Below are positions 18,795 through 38,361 of a DNA stretch of 50,581 bases, one piece after another. The notes under the pieces are model-generated. The model searched no databases, was not told where the DNA came from, and saw only the letters and a list, made by a program, of their open reading frames with translations. The DNA lies in the NCBI GenBank assembly GCA_964236265.1, contig CAXSDE010000013.1, forward strand, positions 7,737 through 58,317, written 5' to 3'. The position numbers and the translations under genes are program-made. The first letter of the stretch is position 1; each line of letters begins with the position of its first letter. The stretch comes from an uncultured bacterium (GTDB lineage: Bacteria; Actinomycetota; Actinomycetes; JAVEEB01).

Positions 18795-18795
18795 A

Positions 18796-19503: not shown

Positions 19504-21329
19504 TTGGCGCCGTCCTCGTCCACGATCTCGGCGTCGACGACGTCGTCATCACCGCTGGAGTCGCCGGACCCGGTGGAGCCGCCGGCCGTCGCCTGCTGGT
19601 TTTCGTACAGGCTGGCGCCCATCCGCTGGCTCACGGTCGCGAGGTGCTCGCTGGTGCTCTTGATGGCGTCGAAGTCGGCGCCCTCCAGTGACTTCTTCGT
19701 GTCGGCGAGTGCGGTGTCGACCTCCGTGCGGACGTCGGCGGCAATCTTGTCGCCGTTGTCCGTCAGGAACTTCTCCGTCTGGTAGACGAGCTGCTCGGCG
19801 CCGTTGCGGACCTCGGCCTGCTCGCGGCGCTTGCGGTCCTCCTCGGCGTACTCCTCCGCCTCGGCCATCATGCGGGCGATGTCGTCCTTCGGCAGCGCGG
19901 AGCCACCGGTGATGGTCATCGACTGCTCCTTGCCGGTGCCGAGGTCCTTCGCGCCGACGTGCACGATGCCGTTGGCGTCGATGTCGAACGTGACCTCGAT
20001 CTGCGGCACGCCGCGCGGGGCGGGAGCGATGCCGGTCAGGTCGAACGTGCCGAGCTTCTTGTTGTAGGTCGCGATGTCGCGCTCCCCCTGGAAGACCTGG
20101 ATCTGCACGGACGGCTGGCTGTCATCGGCCGTCGTGAAGATCTCACTGCGCTTCGTCGGGATCGTCGTGTTGCGCTCGATGATCTTGGTGAAGATGCCGC
20201 CCTTGGTCTCGATGCCGAGGGACAGGGGTGTGACGTCGAGGAGCAGGACGTCCTTGACCTCACCCTTGAGGACACCGGCCTGCAGGCTCGCGCCGACGGC
20301 GACGACCTCGTCCGGGTTGACGCCCTTGTTGGGCTCGCGGCCGCCCGTCAGCTCCTTGACCAGGTCGACGACGGCCGGCATGCGGGTCGAGCCGCCGACG
20401 AGCACGACGTGGTGGATGTCGGCGACCTTGATGCCGGCGTCCTTGACCGCGTTGAGGAACGGCTTGCGGCACCGCTCGAGCAGGTCGGCGGTCAGGCGCA
20501 TGAACTCCGCGCGGCTCAGGCTGCGCTCGAGGTGCACCGGGCCGTTGGCAGTGGCGGTGATGTAGGGAAGCGTGATCGTCGTCTCGGTCGACTGGCTGAG
20601 CTCGATCTTCGCCTTCTCGGCGGCCTCGCGCAGTCGCTGCATGGCCATCTTGTCGGCGGCGAGGTCGACCCCGTGCTCGGACCGGAAGCCTTCGACGAGC
20701 CAGTTCATGACGCGCTCGTCCCAGTCGTCGCCGCCGAGGTGGTTGTCGCCGCTGGTGGCCTTGACCTCGATGACGCCCTCGCCGATCTCCAGCAGGGACA
20801 CGTCGAACGTGCCGCCGCCGAGGTCGAAGACGAGGATCGTCTGGTCGTTCTCCTTGTCCATCCCGTAGGCGAGGGCCGCCGCGGTGGGCTCGTTGATGAT
20901 GCGCAGGACGTTGAGGCCGGCGATCGTGCCCGCCTCCTGGGTCGCCTGGCGCTGCGCGTCGTTGAAGTACGCAGGGACGGTGATGACGGCGTCCGTCACC
21001 GTGTCGCCGAGGAAAGCTTCGGCGTCGCGCTTGAGCTTCTGCAGGATGAAGGCGCTGATCTGCTGCGGGGTGAAGTCCTTGCCGTCGATCTTCTCGGTCC
21101 AGTCCGTGCCGATGTGGCGCTTGACGGAGCGGATGGTGCGGTCGGGGTTGGTGACCGCCTGGCGCTTGGCGACCTCCCCGACGAGGACTTCGCCGTTCTT
21201 CGCGAACGCGACGACGGACGGGGTGGTGCGAGCGCCTTCGGCGTTGGCGATGACCGTGGGCTCGCCACCTTCGAGAACGCTGACGACGCTGTTGGTCGTA
21301 CCGAGGTCAATTCCGACCGCACGGGCCAT
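19500..21329 (-). CDS. dnaK: Chaperone DnaK
   Basis: [38 protein letters not shown] and [15 protein letters not shown]; start ATG 21329. Confidence 0.98.
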
Positions 21330-21363
21330 GATGGTTGCTCCTTGAACTGTGATGGGTGCCTGA

Positions 21364-21436
21364 CTTGAGTCTCTTGCACTCAGGTTAACGCTGCGGCCCA
21401 CCCTGTCAATTCCACGTTGCGCGAAGTCGGCTCAAC
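21364..21436 (-). promoter_or_regulatory. dnaK promoter with two HAIR (HspR) operators
   Basis: CTTGAGT-N7-ACTCAGG (21364-21384) and GTTGCGC-N7-GCTCAAC (21416-21436) versus consensus CTTGAGT-N7-ACTCAAG. Minus-strand TTGACA (21409-21404) and TAACCT (21387-21382) are 16 nt apart. Confidence 0.88.
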
Positions 21437-21509: not shown

Positions 21510-23162
21510 GTGGATGTGCTGTTTGCCAGCGCCGGGTCGATGCGCCCGCTGTACGAGACAGTCGACTGGGCCGCGACGGATATCGGGCATCCGACGACGT
21601 GGAGCCCGACCCTGCGCTCGGCGGTCGACCTGATGCTGCACACCCGCTTTCCGTTGACGTTGATGTGGGGCCGGCACTTCGCGATGCTGTACAACGAGGC
21701 CTACGTGCGGCTGATCGTCGACAAGCACCCAGCCGCGTTGGGCGCTCGCGCATCGACGGTGTTCCCCGAGATCTGGGAATTCATCGGGCCGATGCTCGAT
21801 GACGTCTACCGAGGCGGCCCGGCGACATTCCAGGAAGACAACGGGATGCTGCTCAACCGTCGAGGGTTCCTCGAGGAGTGCTATTTCACCTTCTCCTTCT
21901 CCCCGACGCGAGGCAGCGACGACGCGGTCGAGGGAGTGTTTGCGATCGCGGCGGAGACGACGCGCACGACGATCGACAGACGGCGTTTGGCGCTGCTGGC
22001 AAACCTCAACGCCGGGCTGGCAGACCTGCTCGGCGCGGATGAGGTGCGCGCCCGTGCGTTGCCGCTGCTCCGCGCGGCCACGCAGGACCTGCCGGCCGTG
22101 GACATCGTGCAGGTGGGCCGCGCCGACACCGAGCCGGTCGAGGACGTTGCCATCGCACCGCGGCTGCCGGTGCGCGGCGTCCCCGTGGTGCAGAGCACGG
22201 CGACGGCCACCGTCGCGTCGTTCCGGCTCGACGATCCGAGTAACGGCGACACCACGGACAACGGGGTCCTGCGGGTGCAGCTCAGTCACCATCTGCCGAT
22301 GGACGAACCCTACCTGGCTTTTCTGGGTCTGCTTGCGTCGACGATCGGGCAAGCGGTGAGCCGCGCGCGCGGTCGCGAAAGCGAGCGGCGGGTGGCGGAG
22401 CTGGAACGCGCGATGTCGGAAACACTGCAGCGCAGCCTGCTGACGGCGCCGGCGCAGGCCGATCAGCTGCAGGTCGCCGTGCGCTACCAACCCGCGGTCG
22501 AGCAGGCTCAAGTCGGTGGCGACTGGTATGACTCGTTCCTGCACCCCGGCGGTGCGCTGACCGTCGTCGTCGGCGATGTGTCCGGTCACGACGAACACGC
22601 CGCGGCGGCGATGGCCCAAGTCCGCAACTTGCTCCGCGGGGTCGCCTACACCCTGTTCGAAACTCCGAGCCGACTGCTGACCCGTCTCGACGCAGCGATG
22701 GAGGGCCTCGCCGTGGGCGCGGGGGCGACCGCGGTGCTCGCTCAGGTGGAGCTCGAGGAAGTGGACGCGATGGTGGCGCAGCGCACGCTGCGGTGGTCCA
22801 ATGCCGGGCACCCGCCGCCGATCCTGATCACGCCCGGTGGCGCGGCCCGCCTCCTCGAAACGCCGCCGGAGGTGATGCTCGGTGTGTCGCCGCAAGCGGC
22901 GCGCGCGGACCACACGCTCATCCTCGAGCCGGGGGCCACGGTCGTGTTCTACACGGACGGGCTTGTCGAACGCCGCCACGCCTCGATCGAGGACGGCTTC
23001 GACTACCTGCGCGGTTTCCTCGACGGGCGGGCGGCCGTGGACGCCGAGGACCTGTGCGACCAGCTGCTCGCCGAGTTCGGCCCGGCGGCAGATGACGACA
23101 TCGTCCTGCTCGTCCTCCGCGCGCACCCGCGCCACCCGGCACCGAGACGCGCCGACCGATGA
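21510..23162 (+). CDS. PAS-domain / SpoIIE-type PP2C phosphatase
   Basis: N-terminal DWAATDIG..LYNEAY..KHPAALG PAS-type module; LQRSLL, VGGDWYD, VGDVSGH, NAGHPPP, FYTDGLVE and DDIVLL. Confidence 0.92.
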   Translation: MDVLFASAGSMRPLYETVDWAATDIGHPTTWSPTLRSAVDLMLHTRFPLTLMWGRHFAMLYNEAYVRLIVDKHPAALGARASTVFPEIWEFIGPMLDDVYRGGPATFQEDNGMLLNRRGFLEECYFTFSFSPTRGSDDAVEGVFAIAAETTRTTIDRRRLALLANLNAGLADLLGADEVRARALPLLRAATQDLPAVDIVQVGRADTEPVEDVAIAPRLPVRGVPVVQSTATATVASFRLDDPSNGDTTDNGVLRVQLSHHLPMDEPYLAFLGLLASTIGQAVSRARGRESERRVAELERAMSETLQRSLLTAPAQADQLQVAVRYQPAVEQAQVGGDWYDSFLHPGGALTVVVGDVSGHDEHAAAAMAQVRNLLRGVAYTLFETPSRLLTRLDAAMEGLAVGAGATAVLAQVELEEVDAMVAQRTLRWSNAGHPPPILITPGGAARLLETPPEVMLGVSPQAARADHTLILEPGATVVFYTDGLVERRHASIEDGFDYLRGFLDGRAAVDAEDLCDQLLAEFGPAADDDIVLLVLRAHPRHPAPRRADR

Positions 23163-24783: not shown

Positions 24784-25017
24784 CCGCATGGCCCCGCCCC
24801 GGCCCCGCCTCGGCGACCGTGGCGCGCGCAAGGCGCAGAGCGACCAAACATCTGTTCCGGCGTATGTATCAGACCGGGGACATGGCGCTCTGACCAGGGA
24901 CGGGCACGGCCGTGTGGGCTGTCAGATCGCCACGCGGATGCGCCTGTGCCCGACTCCAAGTGAATTTTCCGATACCTGACCGCTCAGGTCGCCTCGCTGC
25001 GCGCCCAGATCGACGGG

Positions 25018-25527
25018 GTGAGCGCCCAACGTGCCGCGATCGTGAGCACGTTGAGCACCACGACGGCCAGTGCCAAGCCGCTCACGGCAGCGCAGACCGA
25101 GCTGTCGCAACTCGTGCTGTCTAGCAGCGTCGCCGCGCAGAACTTCTCGACGCTGAGCGGGCAATACCAGCAGGCGCTGCTGGGCTCCGGTCAGAACACG
25201 GTCGAGACGATGCACATCGACAAGGCCGCGCCACCGGTGCTGCCGACGAGCCCGATCCGCTACCTCTACCTCCTCGTCGGCTTGGTTCTCGGCGCCCTGC
25301 TGTCCTTCCTGATCGTGCACGCGCGGGTGCTGCGCCGCGCCCGCGCGGCGGGCGTCATCGATGAGGCGGCCGAGGCGGCCGACACCGACGCGCCGCACGT
25401 CGGCCTCGTCAACCTCGTGGAGGCCGAAACGCCAGGCGCCTCCATTCCCGTGCAGGTGCCGTCGGTCAACGGGCACGCCGCCGTGAGCGGCAGGGAAACG
25501 CCGCCCACCGATTCCGCGGGCGGCTGA
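25018..25527 (+). CDS. Short Wzz/CpsC-like polysaccharide co-polymerase fragment
   Basis: Helical Gln/Ser-rich segment, then IDKAAPPVLPTSP plus a TM helix (LYLLVGLVLGALLSFLIV), typical of the co-polymerase C-terminal half; no N-terminal TM. Confidence 0.55.
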   Translation: MSAQRAAIVSTLSTTTASAKPLTAAQTELSQLVLSSSVAAQNFSTLSGQYQQALLGSGQNTVETMHIDKAAPPVLPTSPIRYLYLLVGLVLGALLSFLIVHARVLRRARAAGVIDEAAEAADTDAPHVGLVNLVEAETPGASIPVQVPSVNGHAAVSGRETPPTDSAGG

Positions 25528-25528: not shown

Positions 25529-27064
25529 GTGGTGGCCGCAACCTCGCACCCCGCAACCTCGCACCCCGCAACCTCGCACCCCGCAATCACGCACCCCGCT
25601 GCCGCTGCCTCGCCCGCTCTCGCGGAGACGAGCCTCGCCCGGCGCCTGGCCGTCAGCACCGCAAGCCAGCTGATGTCGCGAGCCGTGCACCTGGTGATCA
25701 ACGTCGTGTCGAGTCTGCTCATCGTGCGCTACCTGGGACCCGCCGGATACGGCGACTACGCCAAGGTGCTTGTCGTCGTCGGGTGGACGAGCCTCATCGG
25801 CGACGCCGGCCTGCCGAAGGTCGCACTGCGCGTCGCCGCCGATGCGCAGGTGCGGATCGGGAAGGTCGTCGGCACCGTGACGATCCTGCGGCTGGCGACC
25901 TCGCTGCTCGCCGCCGTCGTGACGCAGCTCGTGCTGACGGTGGTGCACCCCACCGCGGCGGTGCGCATTGCGGCGGCCGTCGCCTGCCTGGCGTTCGTCG
26001 TCGAGGCGCTGATGAGCTGCATCATCGCGTTCCAGGTGCGGCTGCAGCAGCACTACGAGGGTTTCGTCCGCGTCGCGATGGAGCTCGTGGAGCTCAGCTT
26101 GCTGCTCGCGGTCATGGCGGCGCACCGGGGACTGGTCGCCCTGTTCGCCGCGCCGGTCATCGGCGGGTTCTTCGGCGTCGCCCTCGCCGTGACGCTGACA
26201 CGGCGGCACTTCGCGGAACGCGCGACGTACGACAAAGACCTGGCGCGACGACTCGTCCGACTGACGCTGCCGGTCGTGCCCGGTGTGCTGCTCGGGGTGC
26301 TCATCCTCAAGCTTGACGGGCTGATGGTCGCGGCGCTGGGCACCCGCACGGACGCCGGTGTCTACGTCGCGGCGTTCCAACCGATCGAATACGTTTTCCT
26401 CGGCCTCGGAATGGTCGTCGCCTACCCGTTCCTGCCCGTCCTGGTGGCCAGCCGCCGCGACAACCAGCCACTGTTCGTCTCCTCCTACCGCCACGCGACC
26501 GAGCTCGTCCTCGCCATCACGCTTCCTGTGGCCGCGATCGTGGCGGTCGTCGGCGGGCCCCTCGTCCACGCGATGTACGGCGACGGCTGGGCGAGGGCCG
26601 TGCTGCCTCTGCAGATCCTCGCCGTCGCGCTCGCCTTCATGTCCGTCTCCGGCTGGCACGGCTTCGTGCTGCTCGCGGGCGACAAGCAGATCGACAGCCT
26701 CCGGTACGGCGCGCTCGCGCTCGTTGTCAGCTTCGGCGTCTGCGTCGCCCTGATCGGCCGGCTGGGCCCGGTCGGCGGCGCGTGGGCGGCGCTCATCGCC
26801 AACGTGGTCGGCATGGTCTACTCGGCGTTGCTCGTCCACAACCGCGTGCAGGCGGCCTTCCCCGCGCGACGAGCGGCGCAGCTCGTCGCGGCCAACGCCG
26901 CCCTCGCCGGCGTCCTGTTTGCCCTGCGCTCCGCGGGCGTTGCGTGGCCTGGGCTGATCGTGGCAGCTCTTCCCGTCTACGCCGGCACGCTGTGGGCCTT
27001 CCGCATCGTCCGCGGGGCCGACATCCGCGCTCTCTCGCGCGCCGGTGACGGGAGCACCGCGTGA
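25529..27064 (+). CDS. Wzx-type oligosaccharide flippase
   Basis: About 12-14 hydrophobic segments; IVRYLGPAGYGDY, LKLDGLMV..AGVYVAAF and MYGDGW..LQIL motifs. N-terminal ATSHP x4 (15-bp repeat, 25536-25599). Confidence 0.88.
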   Translation: MVAATSHPATSHPATSHPAITHPAAAASPALAETSLARRLAVSTASQLMSRAVHLVINVVSSLLIVRYLGPAGYGDYAKVLVVVGWTSLIGDAGLPKVALRVAADAQVRIGKVVGTVTILRLATSLLAAVVTQLVLTVVHPTAAVRIAAAVACLAFVVEALMSCIIAFQVRLQQHYEGFVRVAMELVELSLLLAVMAAHRGLVALFAAPVIGGFFGVALAVTLTRRHFAERATYDKDLARRLVRLTLPVVPGVLLGVLILKLDGLMVAALGTRTDAGVYVAAFQPIEYVFLGLGMVVAYPFLPVLVASRRDNQPLFVSSYRHATELVLAITLPVAAIVAVVGGPLVHAMYGDGWARAVLPLQILAVALAFMSVSGWHGFVLLAGDKQIDSLRYGALALVVSFGVCVALIGRLGPVGGAWAALIANVVGMVYSALLVHNRVQAAFPARRAAQLVAANAALAGVLFALRSAGVAWPGLIVAALPVYAGTLWAFRIVRGADIRALSRAGDGSTA

Positions 27065-28095
27065 ACGAGGACTGGCCGACGTTCTCCGTCGTCATCCCGA
27101 CGTACAACCGCAGTGACGTCGTCGAACGCACGTTGCGCTGCCTCGACGCGCAGGACTACCCGCCCGGCAGGCTCGAGGTCATCGTCGTCGACAACTCCAC
27201 CGATGGCACGCCCGACATGGTGCGCCGCGTCGCCGCGGAGTCGGCCATCGGCATCCGCCTGCTCGAGCCGCCCGACCGCATGCCGGCCACCAAGCGCAAC
27301 ATCGGTCTCGCCGAGGCGACGGGCGAATTCGTCCTGTTCATGAACGACGACCTGTGGCTCGTGCCCCAAGCGATAAGGGAGCATGCACTCGCGCATCGCG
27401 CCCGCGGCGGTGAGCCCGTCGCCGTCCTCGGTCGCACGATCCAGTCACCGGAGATGCAGCAGACGCCCTTCATCGAGGTGTACGAACCGTTCGCGTACTT
27501 CGAGCTCGGTCCCGCGCCCCGTCGCGACCTGCGCTGGTGGTACTGCTGGAGCATGAACCTCTCGCTCCCGCGTGAGGTGATGCTGCGGCGAAACCTCGTC
27601 TTCCACACCGACTGGCGGGAGATCGGCAGCGAGGACGTCGAGCTCGGCTGGCGCTGGACGCAGGCGGGGTATCCCCTCGACTACGCACCCGCCGCGTGGG
27701 GTCAGCACTTCCACCCGCACACCCTCGATTCCGCGTCGCGGCTGCAGGCGAGCATCGGCCGCGGCGTTCGTGACCTCGAGTCGCTGGTCCACGACCCCGA
27801 GCTCCACGAGCGCTGGGGCATCTTCTCCTGGCGCAACTCCCCCCGGACGGTCCTGCGTTCCGTTGTGCGCACCGCGTTGTTCAACCGGGCCACGGTGGGG
27901 CCGGTCGCACGCTGGCTGGAGAGCCGCACGCGCAACACCGCGGCGAGCCGCTGGCTCTACTGGAAAGTCCTGCTGCACCACACGAACAAGGCCTACCGCG
28001 CGACCCCCACGCGTCAGGTGCCCCCGACGCCGACGCTGCCCGACGGCGTCCTCGTGCCCGACGGCGTCCTCGTGTCCGGGGCGGAGCCGGCATGA
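27061..28095 (+). CDS. Glycosyltransferase family 2
   Basis: FSVVIPTYNR, VIVVDNSTDGT, RNIGL, LFMNDD and SEDVELGWR. Confidence 0.92.
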   Translation: MNEDWPTFSVVIPTYNRSDVVERTLRCLDAQDYPPGRLEVIVVDNSTDGTPDMVRRVAAESAIGIRLLEPPDRMPATKRNIGLAEATGEFVLFMNDDLWLVPQAIREHALAHRARGGEPVAVLGRTIQSPEMQQTPFIEVYEPFAYFELGPAPRRDLRWWYCWSMNLSLPREVMLRRNLVFHTDWREIGSEDVELGWRWTQAGYPLDYAPAAWGQHFHPHTLDSASRLQASIGRGVRDLESLVHDPELHERWGIFSWRNSPRTVLRSVVRTALFNRATVGPVARWLESRTRNTAASRWLYWKVLLHHTNKAYRATPTRQVPPTPTLPDGVLVPDGVLVSGAEPA

Positions 28096-31000
28096 GCACC
28101 GCCGCGCTCCCGTCGACACGCCGCCAGCGCGTGACCGAGATCGGTGTGCCGGTCGTGGCCGCGACGATCCTTGCCGTTGGACTCGCGGGCGGTCACAAGA
28201 AGTCGCTCATTGCCGTGATCGGTGGCATCGCCATCATCGGCATGCTCATCCTGTCCGCGCGCCGCGAACGGGTGATGGTGGCCTTCCTCACCGTGTCGAT
28301 GGCGTTCATCCTGCACAAGTCGTTCGGCGCGATCGCGCTCGAGAACGGTGGCGCGCCCTCCATCTATATCAGCACTGTCGGTGTGTGCGTCCTCCTCCTC
28401 TACGGCTGCTGGTTCCTGTCCGGGGACATGGGCGCGGACCTGCGGCGCGGCATACGCCACTGGGTGTTGGCTGCCCCTGTTGTCGGCATGGCGTTGATGC
28501 TGCCGAGCTTGCTCATCTCGCCCGCGGTGCGCCTCGGTGTCGCCGAGGAGTTGCAGCTCGGCATCCTCTACCTGCTCTTCGTGTACGTCGCACTGCGCGT
28601 CAACCGGCGGGATGTCGCGATGATCCTCGTGCTGCTCGCGGGCGTGACCCTGCTCGAGGGCGTGGCGGCGCTCGGGCAATGGGTGACGCACGGTCCGCTC
28701 GGCCTTTCGTTCCTCGGTCTGCCGAGCGAGCTGGGTCAGCGCGTCACCGCCGACGGCATCCTCGGCCGGCCGTTCGGCACGATCACGCACCCCGTGTTCC
28801 TCGGCGCGTTCGTCGGCCAGCTAGGGCTGCTGTTCCTCTCGCTCGCTGTCGTCGCGCAGCGTCGCTGGGAGCGCGTCGCCGCTATGGCCCTGGCGACGTG
28901 TGCCGGTGCGACGATCGCGGTGGCGCAGGCCCGCTCGGCGGCGCTCGGGTTCGCGGTCGCGACGCTCGTCATCGTCGTCGTCTCCCTCGCCGTCCGGCGC
29001 ATGCAGTGGCGCACCGTGCGTCGGGGCATCGTCGCCGTGCTCGTGCTGGCAGTTCTTACCTCGCCGCTGCTGATCCGGCTGTATCACGTGTCGCTGTTCA
29101 CCGATCATTTCTCGCTCGAGGTGCAGGCGCGTGGTCAGCTGCTTGACCTCGGCTGGCACATCTTCGCGTCGCGACCGTTCCTCGGCACGGGTCTCAACTC
29201 GTTCCAGCAGGTCATGGATTCGTTCGCGACGACGTCGCTGATCTTCGATGGCAATCCTGTGCACAACATCTACGTGCTGCAGGCCGCCGAGACGGGCGTC
29301 GTCGGCGTGCTCGCGATCCCCGTCGTGGCGTTGTCGTTGTTGTGGGTCGCGGTGCGCGCGGCCCGCTCGCCCGACCGGCTCGGGTCCGGTCTCGGCATCG
29401 CTCTCATCGCGGTGATGACGTTCCTCGGCGTCGAGGAGCTGTTCGTGTTCTCGCTCCGCGAGGACCATCCCCGCTCCCTGTTCTGGTTGCTCGCCGGGCT
29501 CACCGTCGCCGCCGCACGCTTCGCCGGCCTCGTGCCGGGCAGCGACGGCGGCGAGCCCGCCGACCCCGACGCGGGTCCGCGTCTCGTGCGCCGCGCCTGG
29601 GCATGGCTCACGCCGCCGCTGGTCGGGGCCCCGGCGCGTCCGGCCCGGACGCGGCCTGCCGCCGTCGTCCTCGCGACCGTAGCTGCGCAGGCCGGTCCCA
29701 CGACGGCGAACCGGCGTGGTGCCCGGAAGCCTCGGGCCGCCGCCGCGCCGGCCTTCGTGCGCGGAATCGGGTCACAGCGACGGCGCTCGCCCTGGACAAC
29801 GCCCGGCGCCGCGTTCCTGGCCATCACCGGCCTCGTCGCCAGCATCCTCGCGGGCACAGTCACCCTCGCCCCGCCGGCAGCCGCCGCCCACCTGCAGGTC
29901 GTGCTGTCGCTCACCGACCGCGGCACCGGCGGCCAGGGTCTGTACGTCGCCAACGGCGACGGGTCCGGTCTGCACCCGATCACGGCGACGGGCGCCGGCA
30001 CGACGTACGGCTTCGCCGACTGGACACCCGGTGGGCGGCGGCTCACCTACTCCAGCGACACCCCGACGGCGCGCGGACAACTTTTCCTCGCCGCGGGCGA
30101 CGGCTCGCACAGCGTGCAGTTGACCAGCACGCCCTGGCAGAACGGGCAGCCGCACATGTCGCCCGACGGCCGCAGCCTGTTGTTCACCGCGGCGCCGCCC
30201 GACCTTCCCCTCTATGGCCTGTTCCGCATGGACATCGCGTCGGGCCTCGTCACCAACCTGTCGGCCCGTAACTCGACGAGCGCCGCGGTCGACACCGACC
30301 CCAACTGGTCACCGAACGGGCGCAACGTCGTGTTCGTCGAAGGCGCCCGCCCTCGCGACACCGGGGTATCCGCGCAGCCGTCGCAGGTCTACACGATGGC
30401 GGCCGACGGCACGGGCCGTGTCGCGGTCACTCACGACGACCACTACAACGTCGACCCCGTCTACTCACCCGACGGACGCACGATCGCGTTCTCCAGCTAC
30501 CACGGCACGCACCCGGCCAACTCATCGGGCACGCCCGGCCCGCTGACGCCGACGGTCAAACTCGACGACTTCTTCCTGGTGACGCACGACCTTGCGACCG
30601 GCGCGGAGCGGGTGTTCAACAAGGGCGACAACTGCGCTCTCCGGGACCCGGCCGACCCGTGCGCGCCGCTGGACGGCCCGGCGTATCTGCCGAAATACCT
30701 TCCTGGCGGAAAAAGCCTGGCCTACCTGGGCATCCTGGACCGGACGACGGTGTGCGTCTGCGCCGTCGACACGGACGGCGGCAACCCCCGAGTGCTGCTC
30801 GCGTTCGCCCAGCAGACTGTCAACTGGTTCGACTTCACGATCCCAGGTGACGAGCCCGCGACCGCCGCGACGCCGCACTCAGCAGACCCGACCGACCGGC
30901 TTCTCATCCTCACGCACGACGCCGCCGGCCATGCGTCCCTCACGATCTCCACCTCCGACTACTGGACGCGCGTCCCGGTGCAGCTGCCCAAGGGCCTGCA

Positions 31001-31898
31001 CGTCCTGAAGGCCCGCTGGGGATCCGACGCCCACCACGTGCTGCTCACCGCGAGGACCGCCACGGTCGATCCGGCGACCCTGGTCCCGACACCCGCGGCA
31101 CCGCGTGGCCGCGCGCGTCAACGGCACTTCACGCTCGACATGTTACCCGCGGGCACCTCGCTGGCGTTGCGCGCGCCGGCCCCGGCCGACCGCGCGCGCA
31201 TCGACCGGCAGCAGGTGTTCGACCTGGACATCATGACCGGTACCGTCGCCGCCGTCACCACTGCGGGGACCGAGGACTGGCTCGACGCGATCCCCGACGG
31301 CGCCTGGCGCGGCAACGGCGAGGCCATGCCGATCCCGCACAGCCACGCGGTGGTCTTCACCAACTATGCGAGCGACACCGCCGAGTCGTTCCTCCTGCGC
31401 AAGGACCTCGTCACTGGCGCCGTGCGCAGCCTGACCAACGCGACCTCGGGTGCGCTGCCCGTCTCGGACAGCCAACCGGCGGTCTCGCCCGACGGAAAGA
31501 CGGTCGCGTTCGTGACCGGTCACGACGGCGGCACCGATCTGGCGGTCATGTCGGCGAAGACGGGCAACGGCTACCGGCTGCTCACCGACGACGCCGAGGT
31601 GAAGGCCGCCCCGGCGTGGGGCCCTGACGGGTCGTGGCTGGTCTACGCCTCGCTGCGGGCAGGCCAGTGGTCCCTCGTCCGACTCGATGTCGCATCCGGC
31701 CGCCACACGGTGCTGGTGCAGACGTACGGGCAGGCGCAGTCGCCGGTGGTCTCGCCGGACGGCAAACGGATCGCCTACATCTCCTTCAACCACAACCCGG
31801 CGCAGCCCGACGTGCAGATCGTCGACTCCGACGGCGGCAATGCGCACCCCTTGCAGATCACGCTCCCGACGACGGAGGTCTCCCTTGACTGGCGCTGA
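28092..31898 (+). CDS. O-antigen ligase/Wzy-family membrane domain fused to TolB-like (PD40) beta-propeller region
   Basis: aa 1-480 is polytopic with RPFGTITHP, ARSA, RPFLGTGLNSF and VHNIYVLQAAETGVVG. aa 600-1268 carries about nine P-x-W/Y-SPDG-type repeats. Confidence 0.85.
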   Translation: MSTAALPSTRRQRVTEIGVPVVAATILAVGLAGGHKKSLIAVIGGIAIIGMLILSARRERVMVAFLTVSMAFILHKSFGAIALENGGAPSIYISTVGVCVLLLYGCWFLSGDMGADLRRGIRHWVLAAPVVGMALMLPSLLISPAVRLGVAEELQLGILYLLFVYVALRVNRRDVAMILVLLAGVTLLEGVAALGQWVTHGPLGLSFLGLPSELGQRVTADGILGRPFGTITHPVFLGAFVGQLGLLFLSLAVVAQRRWERVAAMALATCAGATIAVAQARSAALGFAVATLVIVVVSLAVRRMQWRTVRRGIVAVLVLAVLTSPLLIRLYHVSLFTDHFSLEVQARGQLLDLGWHIFASRPFLGTGLNSFQQVMDSFATTSLIFDGNPVHNIYVLQAAETGVVGVLAIPVVALSLLWVAVRAARSPDRLGSGLGIALIAVMTFLGVEELFVFSLREDHPRSLFWLLAGLTVAAARFAGLVPGSDGGEPADPDAGPRLVRRAWAWLTPPLVGAPARPARTRPAAVVLATVAAQAGPTTANRRGARKPRAAAAPAFVRGIGSQRRRSPWTTPGAAFLAITGLVASILAGTVTLAPPAAAAHLQVVLSLTDRGTGGQGLYVANGDGSGLHPITATGAGTTYGFADWTPGGRRLTYSSDTPTARGQLFLAAGDGSHSVQLTSTPWQNGQPHMSPDGRSLLFTAAPPDLPLYGLFRMDIASGLVTNLSARNSTSAAVDTDPNWSPNGRNVVFVEGARPRDTGVSAQPSQVYTMAADGTGRVAVTHDDHYNVDPVYSPDGRTIAFSSYHGTHPANSSGTPGPLTPTVKLDDFFLVTHDLATGAERVFNKGDNCALRDPADPCAPLDGPAYLPKYLPGGKSLAYLGILDRTTVCVCAVDTDGGNPRVLLAFAQQTVNWFDFTIPGDEPATAATPHSADPTDRLLILTHDAAGHASLTISTSDYWTRVPVQLPKGLHVLKARWGSDAHHVLLTARTATVDPATLVPTPAAPRGRARQRHFTLDMLPAGTSLALRAPAPADRARIDRQQVFDLDIMTGTVAAVTTAGTEDWLDAIPDGAWRGNGEAMPIPHSHAVVFTNYASDTAESFLLRKDLVTGAVRSLTNATSGALPVSDSQPAVSPDGKTVAFVTGHDGGTDLAVMSAKTGNGYRLLTDDAEVKAAPAWGPDGSWLVYASLRAGQWSLVRLDVASGRHTVLVQTYGQAQSPVVSPDGKRIAYISFNHNPAQPDVQIVDSDGGNAHPLQITLPTTEVSLDWR

Positions 31899-33813
31899 CC
31901 GACAGCCCGACCGCATCAGCGTCGTGGTCGTCAACTACAACGCGGGCGAGTTGCTCGACCGTTGCCTGGACAGCGTGCGCCAGCACGGGTCGCCGCACGT
32001 GCTGGAGACCATCGTCGTGGACAACGCTTCGGTCGACGGTTCCGCCGACCGGGCCGCGGGACGGGACGACATCGTGCTGGTCCGGAGCGCGACGAACGAC
32101 GGCTTCACCGTGGCCAACAACGCGGCCATCCGCCGCAGCCGCGGTGAGTTCGTGCTAATGCTCAATCCCGACGCCGAGCTGACGCCCGGCGCGCTCGGCG
32201 TCCTGATGCGCACGATGCGTGAGCACCCACGCACCGGGGCCGTCGGCCCGCGGCTCGTCTACCCGGACGGCCGCTTCCAGCGGTGGACGGCGGGCCGCGA
32301 GCCGGGAGTGCTGCCCATGCTCGCGTTCGTCACGGGCGCCGACCGGGTCGCCGACCGCGTCACCGCGCCATCGGGCCTGTTCCTCGCGCACGACGTCGCG
32401 CGACCCCTGCGGCCGGACTGGCTGTGCGACGCGGCCCTGCTGTTGCGGCGAACGGCCCTCGACCAGGTCGGCCTGCTCGATGAGGGTTTCTTCGCCTTCA
32501 TGGAGGACGTCGACCTGTGCCGACGCCTGCGCGAAAGCGGTTGGGCGGTGCGCTACGAGCCGTCAGCGACGTGCATCCATGTCACCGGCGGGAGTGCCCC
32601 CACAAAGGCCGCGGCCAAGCGTCCTGACTACGCCGTGATCAACCTCGTCCGCTACCACGCCCGCACGAGCAGCCGGCCGCGGCACGCGGCGTTCCTCGCC
32701 GTTGCCGGTCTCGGTTTCTTGTCCCGATACGCAGCCCACACCGTGCTGTCGGTCACGTCCGCCGACAAGGCGGCACACCGCACCGCCCGCACGTCCCACC
32801 TGCGCCATCTGCGCGCCCTCATGAGCGGAGGCCCGGTGCCCCGACCGGCGACAACGGACATCACGGACACTGTGACGACCACGACGACCCCCACGACCCC
32901 CACGACCAATGACCACGATGGGCACGCCGACTCCCCTCCAGGACAGGCGCACGCGCACGCGCACGGGCATGGACACGGGCATGGGCGGGACGACGGCGGG
33001 CTTTCCCCGGCGGAGCGGCACCAGCACGAGATCGACACGTACAACGCGCTGGCGATCGAACGCTGGGGCGACGTGCCCGACAGCGAACTGGTGCAGGACC
33101 CCGCGACCCCGCCGTTTCCCAACCGCGCGCACGTCGACTTCCTGACCTATGCCGTTGAGCATCTGCAGCCGCTGCAGGGTGCCCGGGCGCTCGAGGTCGG
33201 TTGCGGCAGCGGGTCGCTCGCGACGTACTTGGCCCTGTTGGGCGCCGATGTCACGGCCATCGACCTGTCGGACGGCATGGTGGCGGTCACCAACCGGCGC
33301 GCTGCCGCCAACGGCGTGGCCGACAGGTGTCACGCGATCACCGCCGCGGTCGAGGAGCTCGACCTGCCCGACGAGTATTTCGACATCATCATCGGCAACC
33401 AGGTGCTGCACCACGTGGAGCTCGAACTCGGGATGAAGAACATGGCGCGCATGCTCGCGCCGGGTGGCCGCGTCGCGTTCTGCGAGCCGGTGCTGTTGCT
33501 CCCCGAGACCGCGCGGCGCGTTCGCAACAGCCGCGCAGTGACCCGGTTGTTCCCGCTGCGCACGGACAGCCCCGACGAGCGTTCCCTCGGTCAACGCGAG
33601 CTCGACATCATCACCGGCGCATTCGACGTCTCGCACCTCGAGACATTCCAGATCATGACCCGGCTCGAAAACTTCGTGCCGGTGAACGACAGGTGGTACC
33701 GACGGCTCGAGGCCGCCGACCGCTTCCTGCTGCGCCGTCTCCCGTCGAGCGCCACGCTCGGCCGTTACGTCGTCGTCACCGCGGGGCGATCGACAGACAA
33801 GGACAACCGATGA
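31885..33813 (+). CDS. GT2 glycosyltransferase fused to a class I SAM methyltransferase via a Thr/His-rich linker
   Basis: TTG 31885 after GGAGG; SVVVVNYN, VVDNASVDGS, LNPD and FMEDVDLC; linker TTTTTPTTPTT..HAHAHGHGHGH; then LEVGCGSG, AIDLS, FDIII..VLHH and LAPGG. Confidence 0.85.
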   Translation: MTGADRQPDRISVVVVNYNAGELLDRCLDSVRQHGSPHVLETIVVDNASVDGSADRAAGRDDIVLVRSATNDGFTVANNAAIRRSRGEFVLMLNPDAELTPGALGVLMRTMREHPRTGAVGPRLVYPDGRFQRWTAGREPGVLPMLAFVTGADRVADRVTAPSGLFLAHDVARPLRPDWLCDAALLLRRTALDQVGLLDEGFFAFMEDVDLCRRLRESGWAVRYEPSATCIHVTGGSAPTKAAAKRPDYAVINLVRYHARTSSRPRHAAFLAVAGLGFLSRYAAHTVLSVTSADKAAHRTARTSHLRHLRALMSGGPVPRPATTDITDTVTTTTTPTTPTTNDHDGHADSPPGQAHAHAHGHGHGHGRDDGGLSPAERHQHEIDTYNALAIERWGDVPDSELVQDPATPPFPNRAHVDFLTYAVEHLQPLQGARALEVGCGSGSLATYLALLGADVTAIDLSDGMVAVTNRRAAANGVADRCHAITAAVEELDLPDEYFDIIIGNQVLHHVELELGMKNMARMLAPGGRVAFCEPVLLLPETARRVRNSRAVTRLFPLRTDSPDERSLGQRELDIITGAFDVSHLETFQIMTRLENFVPVNDRWYRRLEAADRFLLRRLPSSATLGRYVVVTAGRSTDKDNR

Positions 33814-34937
33814 AGATCTTGGCCACCGGCACCGCCGGCATGCTCGGCAGCGGACTGGTCCCTGCGCTCGTCGCGGCCGGTCACGATGTCGTGGCGACCG
33901 ACATCAACCTCGCTGACCCCGCACCGTTCGGTGCCGACGGGCCGGCGTTGCAGCACCTCGACGTGCGCGACCGCGGTGCGGTGAGCGACGCCGTCGATGA
34001 GGTCCGGCCGGACCTGGTGGTGCACCTCGCGGCCGTCACGGGTCTGGAGGACTGCGAGAACGACAGCGACAACGCGTGGGCGACAAACGCTCTCGGCACG
34101 AAGCATGCGGCCCTCGCCGCCAAGAGCGTCGGGGCGGCGATCGTCTACATCAGCACCGCCGGTGTTTTCGACGGCACCAAGACAACGCCGTACGACGAGT
34201 ACGACGCCGCCAACCCCATCAACGTCTACGGGGCGTCGAAGTACGAGGGCGAGCGCTTCATCCGCTGGTTTTCCGACAAGGCCTACATCGTGCGGGCCGG
34301 CTGGATGGTCGGCGGCGGGGCGAAGGACCACAAGTTCGTGGCCCGCATCCTCAACCAGGTCCGCGACGGCCGCGACACCATCTACGCGGTCGACGACAAG
34401 CTCGGGACCCCCACGTACGTGCCGGACTTCAGCGCCTGCTTGTGCCGCTTGATCGCCAAGCAGGCCTACGGTCTCTACCACATGGCGTGCGAGGGCGAAG
34501 GGAGCCGGTACGACGTCGCCTGCGCGATCATCGACGTGCTGGGGCTTTCCGACCGCGTGCGTGTCCTGCCCGTCTCCTCCGCCCACTTCGCCGAGGAGTT
34601 CTTCGCCAACCGCCCCCCGTCGGAGATCATGCGCAACCGGTCTCTCGACCTGCAGGGCGACAACACGATGCGCCCATGGCGCGTCGCGATCGCCGATTAC
34701 CTCGCGGTGCACATCGCCAGCGACCCGACGCTCGTCGCACCGCCACGCACCGTCCCCGCCCAACGGCCCGACATCGTGACCAGGCCCGACATCGTGACCA
34801 GGCCCGATGTCGTGACCAGGCCCGACGTCGTGACCATGCCCGACGTCGTGACCAGGCCGGACGTCGTGGCCATGCCGAAGGTCCCGCAGCCGATATCGCC
34901 CGCCCTCGTCACCACACCGGAGTTGAGCCAGCCATGA
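33810..34937 (+). CDS. RmlD-family NDP-4-keto-sugar reductase (divergent second copy)
   Basis: ATG 33810; TGTAGMLG, VHLAA, YISTAGVFDG, VYGASKYEGE and GTPTY; C-terminal (R/M)PD(I/V)VT x6. Confidence 0.88.
   Translation: MKILATGTAGMLGSGLVPALVAAGHDVVATDINLADPAPFGADGPALQHLDVRDRGAVSDAVDEVRPDLVVHLAAVTGLEDCENDSDNAWATNALGTKHAALAAKSVGAAIVYISTAGVFDGTKTTPYDEYDAANPINVYGASKYEGERFIRWFSDKAYIVRAGWMVGGGAKDHKFVARILNQVRDGRDTIYAVDDKLGTPTYVPDFSACLCRLIAKQAYGLYHMACEGEGSRYDVACAIIDVLGLSDRVRVLPVSSAHFAEEFFANRPPSEIMRNRSLDLQGDNTMRPWRVAIADYLAVHIASDPTLVAPPRTVPAQRPDIVTRPDIVTRPDVVTRPDVVTMPDVVTRPDVVAMPKVPQPISPALVTTPELSQP
34764..34877 (+). repeat. In-frame 18-bp tandem repeat x6
   Basis: AGGCCCGAC(A/G)TCGTGACC-type units encoding RPDIVT/RPDVVT. 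Confidence 0.9.
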
Positions 34938-36013
34938 CCGACCTGACCACGACCATCCCTTCGCAGGCAAGCCCGACGAGCCCGCGCACCGCGTCGGTCG
35001 CCGTCGTCATCCCGATGCCGAGCGACCCCGACTGGGCCCTGTTCGATCACGTGCCGGCCGACGTGCCGATCCTCGTCGTCGACGACAGCGACGGGAAGCT
35101 GGCGCCGCCGCCGCGCGACAACGTCACCTATTTCGACTACGGCTCGCAGCGTGACTACATGGGCGAGGCCAACTGGCCGGCCATCCCGCACAAGAGCGCC
35201 GCAACCCGCAACTTCGGGCACTTCTTCGCCTACAAGGAGGGCTACGACGTCATCATCGCCCTCGACTACGACTGCCGCACGCGCGAGGGCTGGCTGGCGG
35301 ACCACCTCGGCTCGCTCGGCATGGTCCTCGACGCACCCGCGCTGAAGGCGGACTGGATCAACTCGGTCGACGTGCCCGGGTGGTACGCGCGCGGCTTCCC
35401 GTACGAGTCCCGCAACACCGACTACGCGCCGGAGGTCACGACCGCGACTGGCATCGTGAAGCTCAACATGGGTCTGTGGGACCACGTGCTGGACCTGAAC
35501 GGGATCGACAAGCTGCAGGCGGAGCCGCCGTACGGTCCGCATGTTCCGGACGTCAACCGCGTCGCCTTGGGCAACATCCCGGTGTGCGGCATGAACAACG
35601 TGTTCTCCGCCGACCTGACCCCCGCATACTTCTTCCTGCCCGACCTGTCCGTCGATGGGTGGAAACTGAGCCGACACGACGACATCTGGGGCGGCTACAT
35701 CACCAAGAAACTGATGGACCTGCGCGGTGACCTGTTCACGTTCGGCAAGCCGGTCGTCGAGCACACGCGGCAGACCCCGCTCGAGCGCGTCGTCGTGATG
35801 GAGCACTGGATGCACCTCATGGCGCGCGAATTCTTCGCCGTCGTCGACGAGGCCGTCGCGACGGTGAAGGTCGCCGACTACACGACCATGTTCGCCGACT
35901 TCACCGAGGCTTACCTGTCGGTGGCCGGGCGCAGCACCGCACCGATGCACTACCGGAAGGTCTACCGGGAGCTCGGCGAGACGATGCAGCTCTGGGCCGC
36001 ATGCTTCGCCTAG
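34934..36013 (+). CDS. Reversibly glycosylated polypeptide / UDP-arabinopyranose mutase-like protein (GT75)
   Basis: Motifs colinear with plant RGP: KSAATRNFG, IIALDYDC, ARGFPYESR, NMGLWDHVLD, PVCGMNNVF, PAYFF and RHDDIWGGY. ATG 34934 overlaps the upstream stop. Confidence 0.8.
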   Translation: MTDLTTTIPSQASPTSPRTASVAVVIPMPSDPDWALFDHVPADVPILVVDDSDGKLAPPPRDNVTYFDYGSQRDYMGEANWPAIPHKSAATRNFGHFFAYKEGYDVIIALDYDCRTREGWLADHLGSLGMVLDAPALKADWINSVDVPGWYARGFPYESRNTDYAPEVTTATGIVKLNMGLWDHVLDLNGIDKLQAEPPYGPHVPDVNRVALGNIPVCGMNNVFSADLTPAYFFLPDLSVDGWKLSRHDDIWGGYITKKLMDLRGDLFTFGKPVVEHTRQTPLERVVVMEHWMHLMAREFFAVVDEAVATVKVADYTTMFADFTEAYLSVAGRSTAPMHYRKVYRELGETMQLWAACFA

Positions 36014-37177
36014 AAACGACGACCCGACCGCTGCGCGCGGCCATCGACGGCCGCGCGCTCGGGTCCGGCTGGGGTGGCGAGGAGACCTACCTGCGGGCCA
36101 TGCTGGCCGGCCTCGCCGAGGTAGGCGGACAGCTCGACCGGTTCCCCGTGTGGATGCGCCCAGGGCTCGAGCCACCCGCCGAGATCGTCGGCGCCGCCGG
36201 CATCCCCGTGCGCCGGCTCGTGACTGCCGTGGGGCCGTGGCATTACGCCGTTCGGTTGCCCCGCGCGGTGCGGCGCGGGAGCGACGACGTCGACGTTCTG
36301 TGCTCGACGACGCACGCGCCGTTGCGGTCCGCCGTCGCGACCGCATTCATCATCGGCGACCTGTCCCCGTTCCACCATCCGGAGTGGTTCCCCCGGCACA
36401 CCGTCGTCCGGCTGCGGGCCGCGTGGCCCATCCACGCACGGCAGGCGGCCGCCGTGCTCGTGCCGTCGGAGTTCACACGCCAGGATGTCATCGAGCGGCT
36501 ACGGGTCCCCGCGGAGCGCGTGTTCGTCGTACCGCCGCATTCCCTTTCTGCGACGACCTGGCGCGACGACGACGACGGCGATGTGCGGCGGGCGGCGGGA
36601 ATCGACGGGCCCTACGTCCTGTCGCTCGGCAACCTGCACCCGCGCAAGAACGTCGGCCGCCTCATCCGCGCGTTCGTCGCGGCGCGATCCGTGCCGGGCA
36701 GCCCCGTCCGTGAGCACCAGTTGGTCATCGCCGGTGGCACGTGGTGGCGCGACGGGGAGGAGCAACGGCTGGCCGCGGCGGCGCCCCCCGGCTCCGTCCG
36801 CATGCTGGGACGCGTCGACGACGCCCGGCGACGCGTTGCTCGCCGGCGCGACGGCTCTCGCCTACGTCTCGCTGTTCGAAGGGTTCGGCCTGCCTCCGAT
36901 CGAGGCGATGGCGGCGGGCACCCCGGTCCTCGTGTCGACCGCCGGCGCCTTGCCCGAGACGTGCGGAGATGGCGCCCTGTACGTCGATCCCTCCGATGTC
37001 GATGCCATCGCGGACGGGCTGACGCGCCTCTGCGAAGAGGCACCGACGCGTGCGTCCCTGCGGCTGCGCGGGTCCGCCCGAGCCGCCGAATTCAACGCCG
37101 CCCGCACCGGGCACGCCGCCCGCGCGGCCCTCGCGTATGCCGCCTTCGGCTCTTCCCCGGCAGCGGTGACGCCGTGA
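36001..37177 (+). pseudogene. GT4 (GT-B) glycosyltransferase with a frameshift near 36829
   Basis: The first frame gives AIDGRAL..GGEETY, DLSPFHHPEWF, VPSEFTR and LGNLHPRKN. The C-terminal DALL..SLFEGFGLPPIEAMAAGTPV is in the +1 frame from 36830. Confidence 0.85.
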
Positions 37178-38361
37178 CGTACGGCCCGTCGCCCCGCGAC
37201 CTCGCGCCGCCGCCCTGGCCGGCGCCCCCGTCCGTCGCCGCGCGCCCGTCGGTCGCGGCGGCGGGCCCTCCGCCGCCACAGGAACCGCCACCACACATAC
37301 CGCCACGGCAACCGCCACGGCAGCGCCCTCGTCGGTCCCGGCGCCGCCGGATCATCCTGCGCACGTTGGCAGCACTGCTGAGTTTAGTTGTCGTGCTGAT
37401 CGCCACGGCCGTCGTCATCGTCTACCGCCAGAACCACCGCGCGGTCACTCCGCTGCCGCCGCCGTTCAGCCTGCCCGCTTCGACGGCGGTGCCGGCCGAC
37501 CACCTGTTGTTCGACTCCGACCGCGCGGGCAACTACGAGATTTTCGCCATGGCCGACGACGGCACCGGCATCCGTGCGATCACCAGCGACCCCACGTACG
37601 ACTCGTGGTGGCCGCAACTCTCGCCCGACCGCACGCATCTACTGTTCTACCGCTCCCCGCGCGGCACCCACGACCGCGACGCCACCGCCAACAGCCTGTG
37701 GGTCGGCAACGCCGATGGCACCGAGCTGCACGAACTGCTGCCGGCCGGCGCGTACGGCTGGGTGCAGCAAGGGCACGCCGAATGGTCGCCCGACGGTCAG
37801 CACCTCGTGATGTTCGCGGGGTCCCGGATCAACCCGCAGCTATGGGAGACGGACGTGCAGGGCCGCAACGCGAAGGCGCTGACATCGCGGCCCGGTGTGA
37901 GCCTCGACCCGTCGTGGTCGCCGGACGGCGACAAGGTCGCGTTCATCGCGTGTCCCGCCCGCGTGTGCTTCGCCGCCGATTACGAGGTGTACGTGCTCGA
38001 TCTCGCCGGCGGGACCAGCACCCGCGTGACGACAAACACGCTGCGAGACCACGACCCCGTGTTCTCCCCCGACGGCACACGGCTGGCGTGGCTCGCGGAG
38101 ACGGCCACCGGGCCGGCCGCGGGCGTCTGGAACGTCCGTTCGGCGGCGCTTGACGGCAGTGACCTCCGCGATGTCACGCACGACGGCAACATCAACAGCC
38201 GGCCGGCCTACTCACGGAACGGCACGGTCATCTACTTCCACCGGCTCGTCTACGGTGCGGCGCCCGCGAGCTTCCAGATCTGGCGCGTATCGCCCGACGG
38301 CTCGGGGCTTGCTCCGGTGGGCGCCGAGCAGCCCGGCAACAACGAATACCCCGCGCCATGA
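37174..38361 (+). CDS. Membrane-anchored TolB-like (PD40) beta-propeller protein
   Basis: GTG 37174; Pro-rich N-terminus, Arg cluster and TM; FDSDRAGNYEIF, PQLSPD, EWSPDG, PSWSPDG, PVFSPDG and PAYSRNG. Confidence 0.85.
   Translation: MTYGPSPRDLAPPPWPAPPSVAARPSVAAAGPPPPQEPPPHIPPRQPPRQRPRRSRRRRIILRTLAALLSLVVVLIATAVVIVYRQNHRAVTPLPPPFSLPASTAVPADHLLFDSDRAGNYEIFAMADDGTGIRAITSDPTYDSWWPQLSPDRTHLLFYRSPRGTHDRDATANSLWVGNADGTELHELLPAGAYGWVQQGHAEWSPDGQHLVMFAGSRINPQLWETDVQGRNAKALTSRPGVSLDPSWSPDGDKVAFIACPARVCFAADYEVYVLDLAGGTSTRVTTNTLRDHDPVFSPDGTRLAWLAETATGPAAGVWNVRSAALDGSDLRDVTHDGNINSRPAYSRNGTVIYFHRLVYGAAPASFQIWRVSPDGSGLAPVGAEQPGNNEYPAP

Follow-up and report, generated by a model that had tools for sequence, protein, structure and literature searches.

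In the usual description, Wzy-type polymerases and WaaL-type ligases act alone or together with Wzz. A complex of the polymerase WzyE with its Wzz co-polymerase, WzzE, has been described (PMC10030265), and the 14 helices mapped in Pseudomonas Wzy, whose two ends are cytoplasmic (PMC2932511), correspond to the layout of the enzyme considered here. That enzyme is encoded in a stretch of 50,581 nucleotides from an uncultured bacterium of the Actinomycetota (assembly GCA_964236265.1, contig CAXSDE010000013.1, positions 7,737 to 58,317 of the forward strand), which we call the window. There it forms the first part of a fusion gene on the plus strand (28092..31898; ATG start, 1268 amino acids), whose product runs from a Wzy_C/WaaL-fold domain through a linker and an internal segment resembling a signal peptide into two β-propellers. 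Each part belongs to a known family, and automatic annotations already show the parts combined. Our preferred reading, to which we give a probability of about 0.5, is a natural gene fusion in which the propeller's signal peptide was kept as an internal export signal and is probably still cut by signal peptidase I.

A WaaL-fold enzyme and two propellers in one reading frame

The fusion frame is free of stops from 27774, and its first ATG, GTG or TTG codon is the ATG at 28092, which overlaps the stop of the upstream GT2 glycosyltransferase gene (GT2a, 27061..28095, plus strand). GC at third codon positions (GC3) is 0.87 in a genome of about 70% GC, and this codon-position composition fits a real gene. 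Pfam finds both Wzy_C and PD40 in the product. The open frame, the Pfam matches and the structure models described below confirm the original prediction, made from the DNA letters and their open reading frames, of a single 1268-residue frame joining a ligase-like part to tandem TolB-like propellers. In most fused homologues (P0004-P0020 and loci L001-L030), the first helix is preceded by some 100-200 N-terminal residues that are poorly conserved; the window protein, whose start abuts the upstream GT2 gene, has no such extension.

Residues 1-478 (28092..29525, plus strand) make up a 14-helix membrane domain, assigned from a Pfam Wzy_C match, the helices of the model, a structural match to WaaL and aligned Arg, Arg, Arg and His-Asn residues. 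Wzy_C (PF04932) matches residues 269-408 with an E-value of 2.4e-11 and 44.1 bits against a cut-off of 31.7; in a six-frame search of the genome the fusion scored 51.4 bits and was the sole Wzy_C above the cut-off. An AlphaFold2 model of residues 1-603, built from an 18-row alignment, has a mean predicted local distance difference test (pLDDT) score of 70, with values over 85 in most of the blocks that form the helical core, and shows 14 long helices up to residue 477, disorder over residues 485-573 and a further helix at 572-587. An exhaustive structural comparison placed WaaL first (7tpj_B; Z 26.7, root-mean-square deviation (rmsd) 4.4, 379 of 403 residues, model residues 55-481), followed by the SEDS proteins RodA and FtsW at Z 13-15 (best RodA, 14.9). 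As a single sequence the ligase domain gave no match among PDB sequences, so that a profile is needed to detect WaaL; a profile of 18 ligase domains retrieved WaaL only (Cupriavidus 7tpg_B, E 1.3e-11). On the strength of the structural and profile matches, we read the domain as a WaaL-type 12-helix core (residues 55-481) preceded by two extra N-terminal helices. The profile alignment sets R226, R281, R347 and H391-N392 onto identical residues of Cupriavidus WaaL, which we take to be catalytic. All three arginines are invariant in 18 of 18 homologues and H391 is present in at least 90%, bearing out the ligase-type Arg and HN motifs first noticed in the sequence.

When the Wzy_C loop (residues 336-392) is set external, all short basic loops fall inside, and Lys plus Arg account for 23 of 129 residues in inside loops against 6 of 135 in outside loops. 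Both ends of the 14-helix domain would thus be cytoplasmic. The conserved outer loops of the enzyme comprise residues 73-94, 200-233, 336-392 and 452-457. The most invariant stretches among them, residues 73-91 (28308-28364) and 202-232 (28695-28787), carry the motifs HKSF...GGAPS.Y and LGLSFLG.P...GRPFGT.H and have pLDDT below 50 when the enzyme is modelled without the propellers; the model makes them candidate contact sites.

Propeller 1 (residues 600-919, 29889..30848) and propeller 2 (residues 932-1268, 30885..31895), both on the plus strand, are six-bladed and TolB-like. Pfam PD40 matches the fusion protein with an E-value of 1.7e-28, and the model of residues 595-1268 has a pLDDT of 87.8 and a predicted template-modelling score (pTM) of 0.86. 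Its top Foldseek matches are tandem six-bladed propellers (LRP6) and TolB. VIA-align placed TolB on the model twice, at model positions 1-325 (Z 31.9, rmsd 2.3, 271 residues, 24% identity) and 338-674 (Z 29.8, rmsd 2.4, 264 residues), in agreement with the earlier estimate that some 670 residues of PD40 repeats would suffice for roughly two propellers. The paired cysteines seen at the outset, C848-x8-C857 and C888-V-C890, lie in propeller 1, and all 18 aligned fused homologues share them without exception. Most of the non-structural invariants (H1012, T1014, Q1041, E1061, D1062, D1065, R1073, N1075, E1098 and N1116) belong to propeller 2, which has a conserved insertion, P1004..H1012-x-T1014, and an invariant motif, T-E1061-D1062-W-x-D1065 ... 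R1073-G-N1075. Against the TolB family model TIGR02800 the protein scores 150.2 bits, under the cut-off of 343.15; the propeller starts 8 residues past the hydrophobic segment, leaving no room for a TolB N-terminal domain; and no tol or pal genes were found among the neighbours, which are glycan genes.

In a metagenome-assembled genome (MAG) at about 7x depth, such as the one that holds the window, two ordinary genes could have been joined by an error in sequencing or assembly; a GT4 gene in the same operon is frameshifted, and split forms exist elsewhere. The relatives speak against such an error. A word-indexed protein search returned 19 strong homologues (E <= 6.9e-167, 34-65% identity), 17 of which are listed with both Wzy_C and PD40 and some of which carry the JGI label 'Tol biopolymer transport system component/O-antigen ligase'; the closest of them, at 64-65% identity, have the same continuous layout. 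Scanning one genome per species with patterns from the invariant outer loops, LGLSFLG.P and GRPFGT.H, we found 30 loci, all in Actinomycetota, with Acidimicrobiia, Microthrixaceae, Humibacillus xanthopallidus, Actinopolymorpha pittospori, Micromonospora, Rugosimonospora, Propionibacteriaceae and Dermatophilaceae among the taxa. Contig ends truncate three loci. In 22 of the 27 that remain for a frame test, one uninterrupted frame spans both halves, and in five the frame changes; the propeller is present in 27 of 27 loci whose sequence runs past the ligase domain. The 22 independent loci share the continuous layout with a long linker that split forms lack. Frame-changed loci L018, L020, L022 and L029 are MAG contigs; three of these have further frame changes inside domains and L020 changes frame within the linker, and we read these changes as errors or decay.

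Contigs from a second assembler (Logan) show no difference from the window over 29000-31064, although they derive from the probable source run, and thus from the same reads, and are not independent of the window assembly. This run is the sole DNA run listed as containing the sequence, and no RNA run is listed. This span covers 29530-29760, the region between the domains that had been singled out for a check of the reads, and the sequence there is identical. The fusion is real and not an artefact, an error of the kind described being extremely improbable. Its occurrence is patchy among the genomes searched: 201 genomes sampled from the class of genome G001 gave one match, G001 itself, and a stricter first look at 61 relatives of the window genome gave the window genome itself as the one match. 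Absence is not thereby shown.

Split relatives and the fate of the internal segment

Between the enzyme and the propellers lie a basic, Pro/Ala-rich, disordered linker, predicted to be cytoplasmic (residues 479-555, 29526..29756, plus strand), and the segment resembling a signal peptide (residues 556-599, 29757..29888, plus strand). Residues 478-568 contain 15 Lys plus Arg against 4 Asp plus Glu, pLDDT is below 50 over residues 485-573 and GC reaches 0.788 over 29500-29999; the basic Pro/Ala linker had been recognized correctly. Linker length ranges from 27 to 162 amino acids among 18 aligned homologues, with no sequence conservation in either the linker or the hydrophobic segment, and the order of linker, Arg cluster, hydrophobic segment and propeller is kept in all 18.

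The segment was found as originally described, reading SQRRRSPWTTPG-AAFLAITGLVASILAGTVTL-APPAAAA and then HLQ. It has an n-region with RRR, an Arg cluster; an h-region, AAFLAITGLVASILAGTVTL, of about 20 hydrophobic residues of moderate strength; and an Ala-rich c-region, APPAAAA, in which AAA precedes H600, the residue before which the cut is predicted. The first propeller strand runs from about L602, the propeller beginning 8 residues past the hydrophobic stretch. By simple rules of our own (Kyte-Doolittle 19-mer and the -3/-1 positions) rather than SignalP, the segment shows the basic n-region, h-region strength and small -3/-1 residues of a Sec-type signal; as far as its residues tell, it has the physical character of a Sec signal peptide.

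Relatives in which the two halves are separate genes explain where such a segment could come from. In one Acidimicrobiia locus (L017) the split is clean: the ligase ends ...PVSM-stop within ATGTGA, and the overlapping GTG opens the propeller gene, whose product starts (M)KRGRAR-CARIVCAHVVLSLLLT-NRAVA-TVQ. A relative of this propeller, P0088, also stands alone. A HMMER search with the double propeller alone gave 411 representatives at E <= 1e-30; 87 proteins went to a coverage check, and 65 cover at least 85% of the double propeller (36 fused, 21 short forms starting with Met and 8 partial). The short forms mostly start with classical signal peptides, for example MTRRLLAFVLAIGALCAVGDASA then AD and MKILLIALIFSALLSAGLLPPAVA then KG, and some five of the 21 seem either to lack their N terminus or to be unrelated. 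A metagenome scan, built on a six-sequence alignment of short forms, a 16-protein alignment being too diverse, found 12 loci, eight of them showing the ligase-propeller junction. In all eight the junction consists of two genes, with the ligase stop overlapping the propeller start codon by 8-11 nucleotides; the ligase frame ends 10-20 residues past the last helix, there is no linker, and the propeller begins with a Sec signal peptide (for example, MRGNAAALAIVLFLCVGQPALA then G). Pfam places Wzy_C and PD40 in separate open reading frames of the split loci, and one split-group protein is filed under Candidatus Acidoferrales, Acidobacteriota.

A quick maximum-likelihood tree of 61 propeller domains, in which the labels fused and split rest on gene calls, gathers ten split forms into one clade with an approximate likelihood-ratio (SH-aLRT) support of 99. 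Other split forms adjoin fused ones in this tree, as P0088 does P0070 at 100, and the two labels interleave, with at least six state changes forced by well-supported branches. The original prediction had treated a stop between the domains in relatives as a sign of two ordinary genes. Such a stop is present in eight of eight Acidobacteriota-type junctions and in L017, and absent from the window and from 22 of 27 Actinomycetota loci; found in some relatives only, it explains the fusion rather than refuting it. Because the propellers of split orthologues start with a Sec signal at this very place, we read the internal segment as the propeller's retained signal peptide.

The physical properties of the segment agree with this origin. 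Among 50%-identity representatives, the median 19-mer Kyte-Doolittle value is 1.96 for fused segments (n = 36, one of them mis-located by the script) and 2.02 for split signal peptides (n = 16), and the median h-region length is 19 and 17 residues, respectively. A different kind of segment is at hand in the same operons, which also encode a membrane-anchored single-propeller protein: in its anchors, taken from 19 loci and the window, the median is 2.92 and charged residues come next, whereas in 43 fused rows the median is 1.89 and the residues that come next are small. The loose -3/-1 rule holds in 43 of 43 fused rows and 2 of 20 anchors and the strict A/V/S-x-A rule in 32 of 43 and 9 of 20, counts that are descriptive because the rows are related and partly redundant. 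In hydrophobicity and in its small-residue tail, then, the internal segment is of the same physical kind as the signal peptides of the orthologues and unlike the neighbouring anchor. Since by helix parity it crosses from inside to outside, the propellers would be extracytoplasmic, a location that the four invariant cysteines (C848, C857, C888 and C890) fit. An extracellular propeller that is either tethered to its enzyme or cut off from it at an internal signal-like segment, as first proposed, is thus supported both by topology and by the Sec signal of split orthologues at the same position.

We therefore picture the protein as follows. Residues 1-478 are an enzyme of the WaaL/Wzy fold, with 14 membrane helices and two cytoplasmic ends, and the segment would then start a second round of export, taking the two TolB-like propellers to the outer face, as topology and the positive-inside rule suggest. 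We lean slightly towards signal peptidase I still cutting after AAA599. The products would be a membrane enzyme of about 62 kDa, keeping the signal peptide as a 15th helix, and a free double propeller of about 72 kDa.

An uncleaved 15th helix could instead act as a signal-anchor, a permanent tether that would hold the double propeller at the outer face beside the enzyme and replace the periplasmic confinement of two-membrane bacteria. The dominance of fused forms in Actinomycetota (22 of 27 loci), the Acidobacteriota-type membership of the clean split clade, a first propeller strand only 1-29 residues past the hydrophobic core and a median h-region of 19 residues all suit a tether. Yet the segment lies far below the true anchor of the same operons in hydrophobicity (1.9 against 2.9), the small-residue tail is kept in 43 of 43 rows, there is neither sequence conservation nor confident packing on the helix bundle in the model, and at least one Acidimicrobiia lineage has the split form with a signal peptide. 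We regard permanent tethering as a serious possibility, if one that we do not favour.

Several further points weigh against retained cleavage. The longer h-region of fused forms (19 against 17 residues) can disfavour it. A single-membrane cell would lose a propeller that is free and binds nothing; for Actinomycetota, where fused forms dominate, this favours permanent tethering. The loose -3/-1 rule is a weak test, since high-GC proteins often have tails rich in Ala, Gly and Ser. Some of the stand-alone proteins, moreover, may be internal-start gene calls: P0081 (686 amino acids) shares a 90% cluster with a 1476-residue protein.

Internal initiation could also bear on the window gene itself. 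The GTG at 29757, the in-frame codon of V556, stands just ahead of the Arg cluster, and the split-form propeller starts at the equivalent place; translation might also, or mainly, begin there and yield the propeller as a separate pre-protein with a 44-residue signal peptide. With no stop in the ligase frame, and with a linker that remains open in 22 of 27 loci despite wide variation in its length, we consider this improbable.

We give even less credence to a dual Sec-Tat route, in which Sec would insert the 14 helices and the twin-arginine (Tat) system would export folded propellers by way of the last helix, which is weakly hydrophobic. In its favour are the even helix count ahead of the segment and the low hydrophobicity of a last helix that follows a long basic loop, with RRR in the window. 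However, RR adjoins the h-region in 18 of 36 fused representatives, a loose Tat motif occurs in 4 of 36, and 9 of 36 have Lys or Arg within 8 residues past the helix. In several split orthologues the signals are of plain Sec type and lack RR; the fusion protein contains no cofactor domain; and its conserved Cys pairs would suit oxidation on the outside. The conserved twin-arginine and the later positive charges that serve as criteria in the relevant passages of PMC5449189 do not characterize the 36 fused representatives. A retained Sec signal peptide, probably still cut, remains the reading that we prefer.

The operon and a possible role for the propellers

The fusion gene sits in a tight plus-strand operon. 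Before it come the remnant of a Wzz/GNVR chain-length protein (24964-25527; C-terminal part only), a Wzx-type (MOP) flippase (25529..27064; Pfam Polysacc_synt_3) and GT2a. After it come a GT2-methyltransferase (to 33813), RmlD (33810-34937), a 359-residue RGP/GT75-like protein (34934-36013), the frameshifted GT4 (36001-37177), the anchored single-propeller PD40 protein (37174..38361), whose GTG start overlaps the GT4 stop, a hexapeptide acetyltransferase (38358-39023) and a further GT2 (39023-39949), all on the plus strand. Near the 30 fused loci, Wzx was found in 29, GT2a in 30 and RmlD, the RGP-like gene and GT4 in 26 each, with strong matches to the single-propeller protein in 19; the operon set recurs around split loci too. 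Relatives carry a full Wzz/GNVR protein (L003 and L039), a Bac_transf initiating transferase and sugar-nucleotide genes.

Judged by its gene content, the operon is a Wzx/Wzy-dependent pathway. Since the related operons hold Wzx, a Wzz-type chain-length protein and no other candidate, the enzyme half is probably the Wzy polymerase of this pathway.

The window's own copy of the cluster calls for caution. The chain-length remnant matches positions 315-429 of a 498-position model and has an in-frame stop ahead of it, full-length genes in relatives encoding about 460-500 amino acids. The GT4 gene changes frame between 36810 and 36863, with the same sequence in the Logan contigs; the frame of 36001 contains Glyco_transf_4 and that of 36485-37177 contains Glycos_transf_1, where relatives have one intact gene. 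The cluster thus appears partly decayed, and the pathway may not be fully active here. The fusion gene, though, is intact.

The 5' part of the window cluster seems to have been lost or rearranged, with GT2b at the 3' end instead of upstream. A 786-residue open reading frame at 36001-38361, apparently a GT4 fused to PD40, was considered and rejected: the C-terminal half of GT4 lies in the other frame, relatives have two genes, and the apparent fusion is a by-product of the GT4 frameshift. The flanks hold a minus-strand dnaK-grpE-dnaJ-clpB block, a methyl-accepting chemotaxis protein and a SpoIIE-type phosphatase (14530-21401, minus strand; 39946-41613, minus strand; 21510-23162, plus strand).

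Some of the other operon genes offer glimpses of the product. The RGP-like gene (34934-36013) is the most conserved of the cluster, with identities of 48-68% across 26 of the 30 loci and of 60-65% across 9 of the 12 split-type ones. Its product has no Pfam match; language-model features resemble those of reversibly glycosylated polypeptide/UDP-arabinopyranose mutase (GT75; 0.98), and it matches PDB entry 7yua, 'Transglycosylse', with an E-value of 4.6e-18. This likeness to RGP/GT75 hints at a furanose sugar in the glycan. In L003 (17737-20436) and L039 (12391-14189), genes for FabH-like, 3-hydroxyacyl-CoA dehydrogenase, MaoC dehydratase and short-chain dehydrogenase/reductase (SDR) proteins lie beside the glycan genes, a neighbourhood that suggests acyl (for example, hydroxyacyl) decoration or a lipid-linked product. 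The single-propeller protein (37174-38361) has a Pro-rich cytoplasmic N terminus and a strong membrane anchor; the flanks of the split, Acidobacteriota-type loci showed no copy of it, and it would be a third propeller of the pathway.

On the evidence of gene arrangement, the double propeller is genetically locked to this enzyme subfamily, either fused to it or as an overlapping neighbour. This locking, and invariant loops that are modelled with low confidence when the enzyme is taken alone, lead us to propose docking on the outer face. The propellers would rest against the enzyme's conserved outer loops and act on the glycan, whether still growing or complete, as a subunit that resembles a co-polymerase or presents the acceptor, a role that we think fairly likely. 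Standing against it is that propeller function is drawn wholly from genomic context. A complex prediction of ligase residues 1-485 with propeller 2 by itself (residues 925-1268), run without controls, scored 0.00 against a mark of 0.32, a score that speaks neither for nor against docking. More tentatively, the whole may be a membrane polyprotein, a single chain that signal peptidase would split into a 14-helix polymerase of the Wzy type and a secreted double propeller. The propeller would then be an obligatory extracytoplasmic subunit not recognized before, a new kind of co-polymerase or a cap that handles the glycan, in a pathway conserved across at least two phyla.

Comparison with known systems

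The full-text literature, supplements aside (including the candidate dual-targeted list cited in PMC5449189), yielded no study of the fusion architecture, and the passages on O-antigen ligase and TolB in the Lipocone paper hold nothing on this fusion. We found no description of how fused and split forms are related, of a signal peptide retained inside the fusion or of the cross-phylum operon. Fused and neighbouring-gene forms together point to an undescribed extracellular partner of this enzyme class, for which the double propeller, encoded in an operon of Actinomycetota and of an Acidobacteriota-type group, is a concrete candidate. The two forms offer a natural pair of constructs for testing how the product is handed over outside the membrane, and the fused forms are a rare natural case of a signal peptide placed after 14 membrane helices, of value for questions about signal peptidase. 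Cultured carriers are at hand in Humibacillus xanthopallidus, Actinopolymorpha pittospori and a Micromonospora strain.

For the cleaved reading, the sole bacterial precedent known to us is FbcH, the cytochrome b/c1 polyprotein of Bradyrhizobium japonicum, in which a polytopic and an exported protein are made as one chain and cut at an internal signal peptide. The proteins and the pathway are unrelated to those described here, and cleavage has been shown for FbcH whereas for the fusion it is predicted. The Streptomyces Rieske protein Sco2149 and the protein Sco3746, as presented in the relevant passages of Tooke et al. 2017 (PMC5449189), share with the fusion an even number of helices, a basic loop, a weak last helix and an exported C-terminal globule; unlike these Sec-Tat proteins, the fusion family has no conserved twin-arginine and no cofactor domain, and its split orthologues use plain Sec signals. 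Each propeller superposes on the six-bladed PD40 propeller of TolB (Z 30-32, rmsd 2.3-2.4, 20-24% identity). The fusion differs from TolB in its tandem propellers, family-specific motifs and Cys pairs, as well as in its sub-cut-off score, its lack of an N-terminal domain and the absence of tol-pal.

The enzyme half resembles WaaL of Cupriavidus metallidurans (7TPG/7TPJ) and PF04932 in fold, in the aligned Arg/Arg/Arg/His-Asn of its outer loops and in Pfam score. It has 14 helices, two of them extra and N-terminal, against 12 in WaaL, along with family-specific invariant outer loops (LGLSFLG.P and GRPFGT.H), and it adds a C-terminal linker, signal peptide and 670-residue double propeller; its actinomycetotal host, moreover, has no lipid A-core acceptor. 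To Wzy systems the operon is similar in its Wzx and glycosyltransferases and, in relatives, in Wzz/GNVR and an initiating transferase. We know of no Wzy that carries or pairs with a β-propeller. Compared with these systems, the propeller of the fusion is an added partner, and possibly a second kind of co-polymerase.

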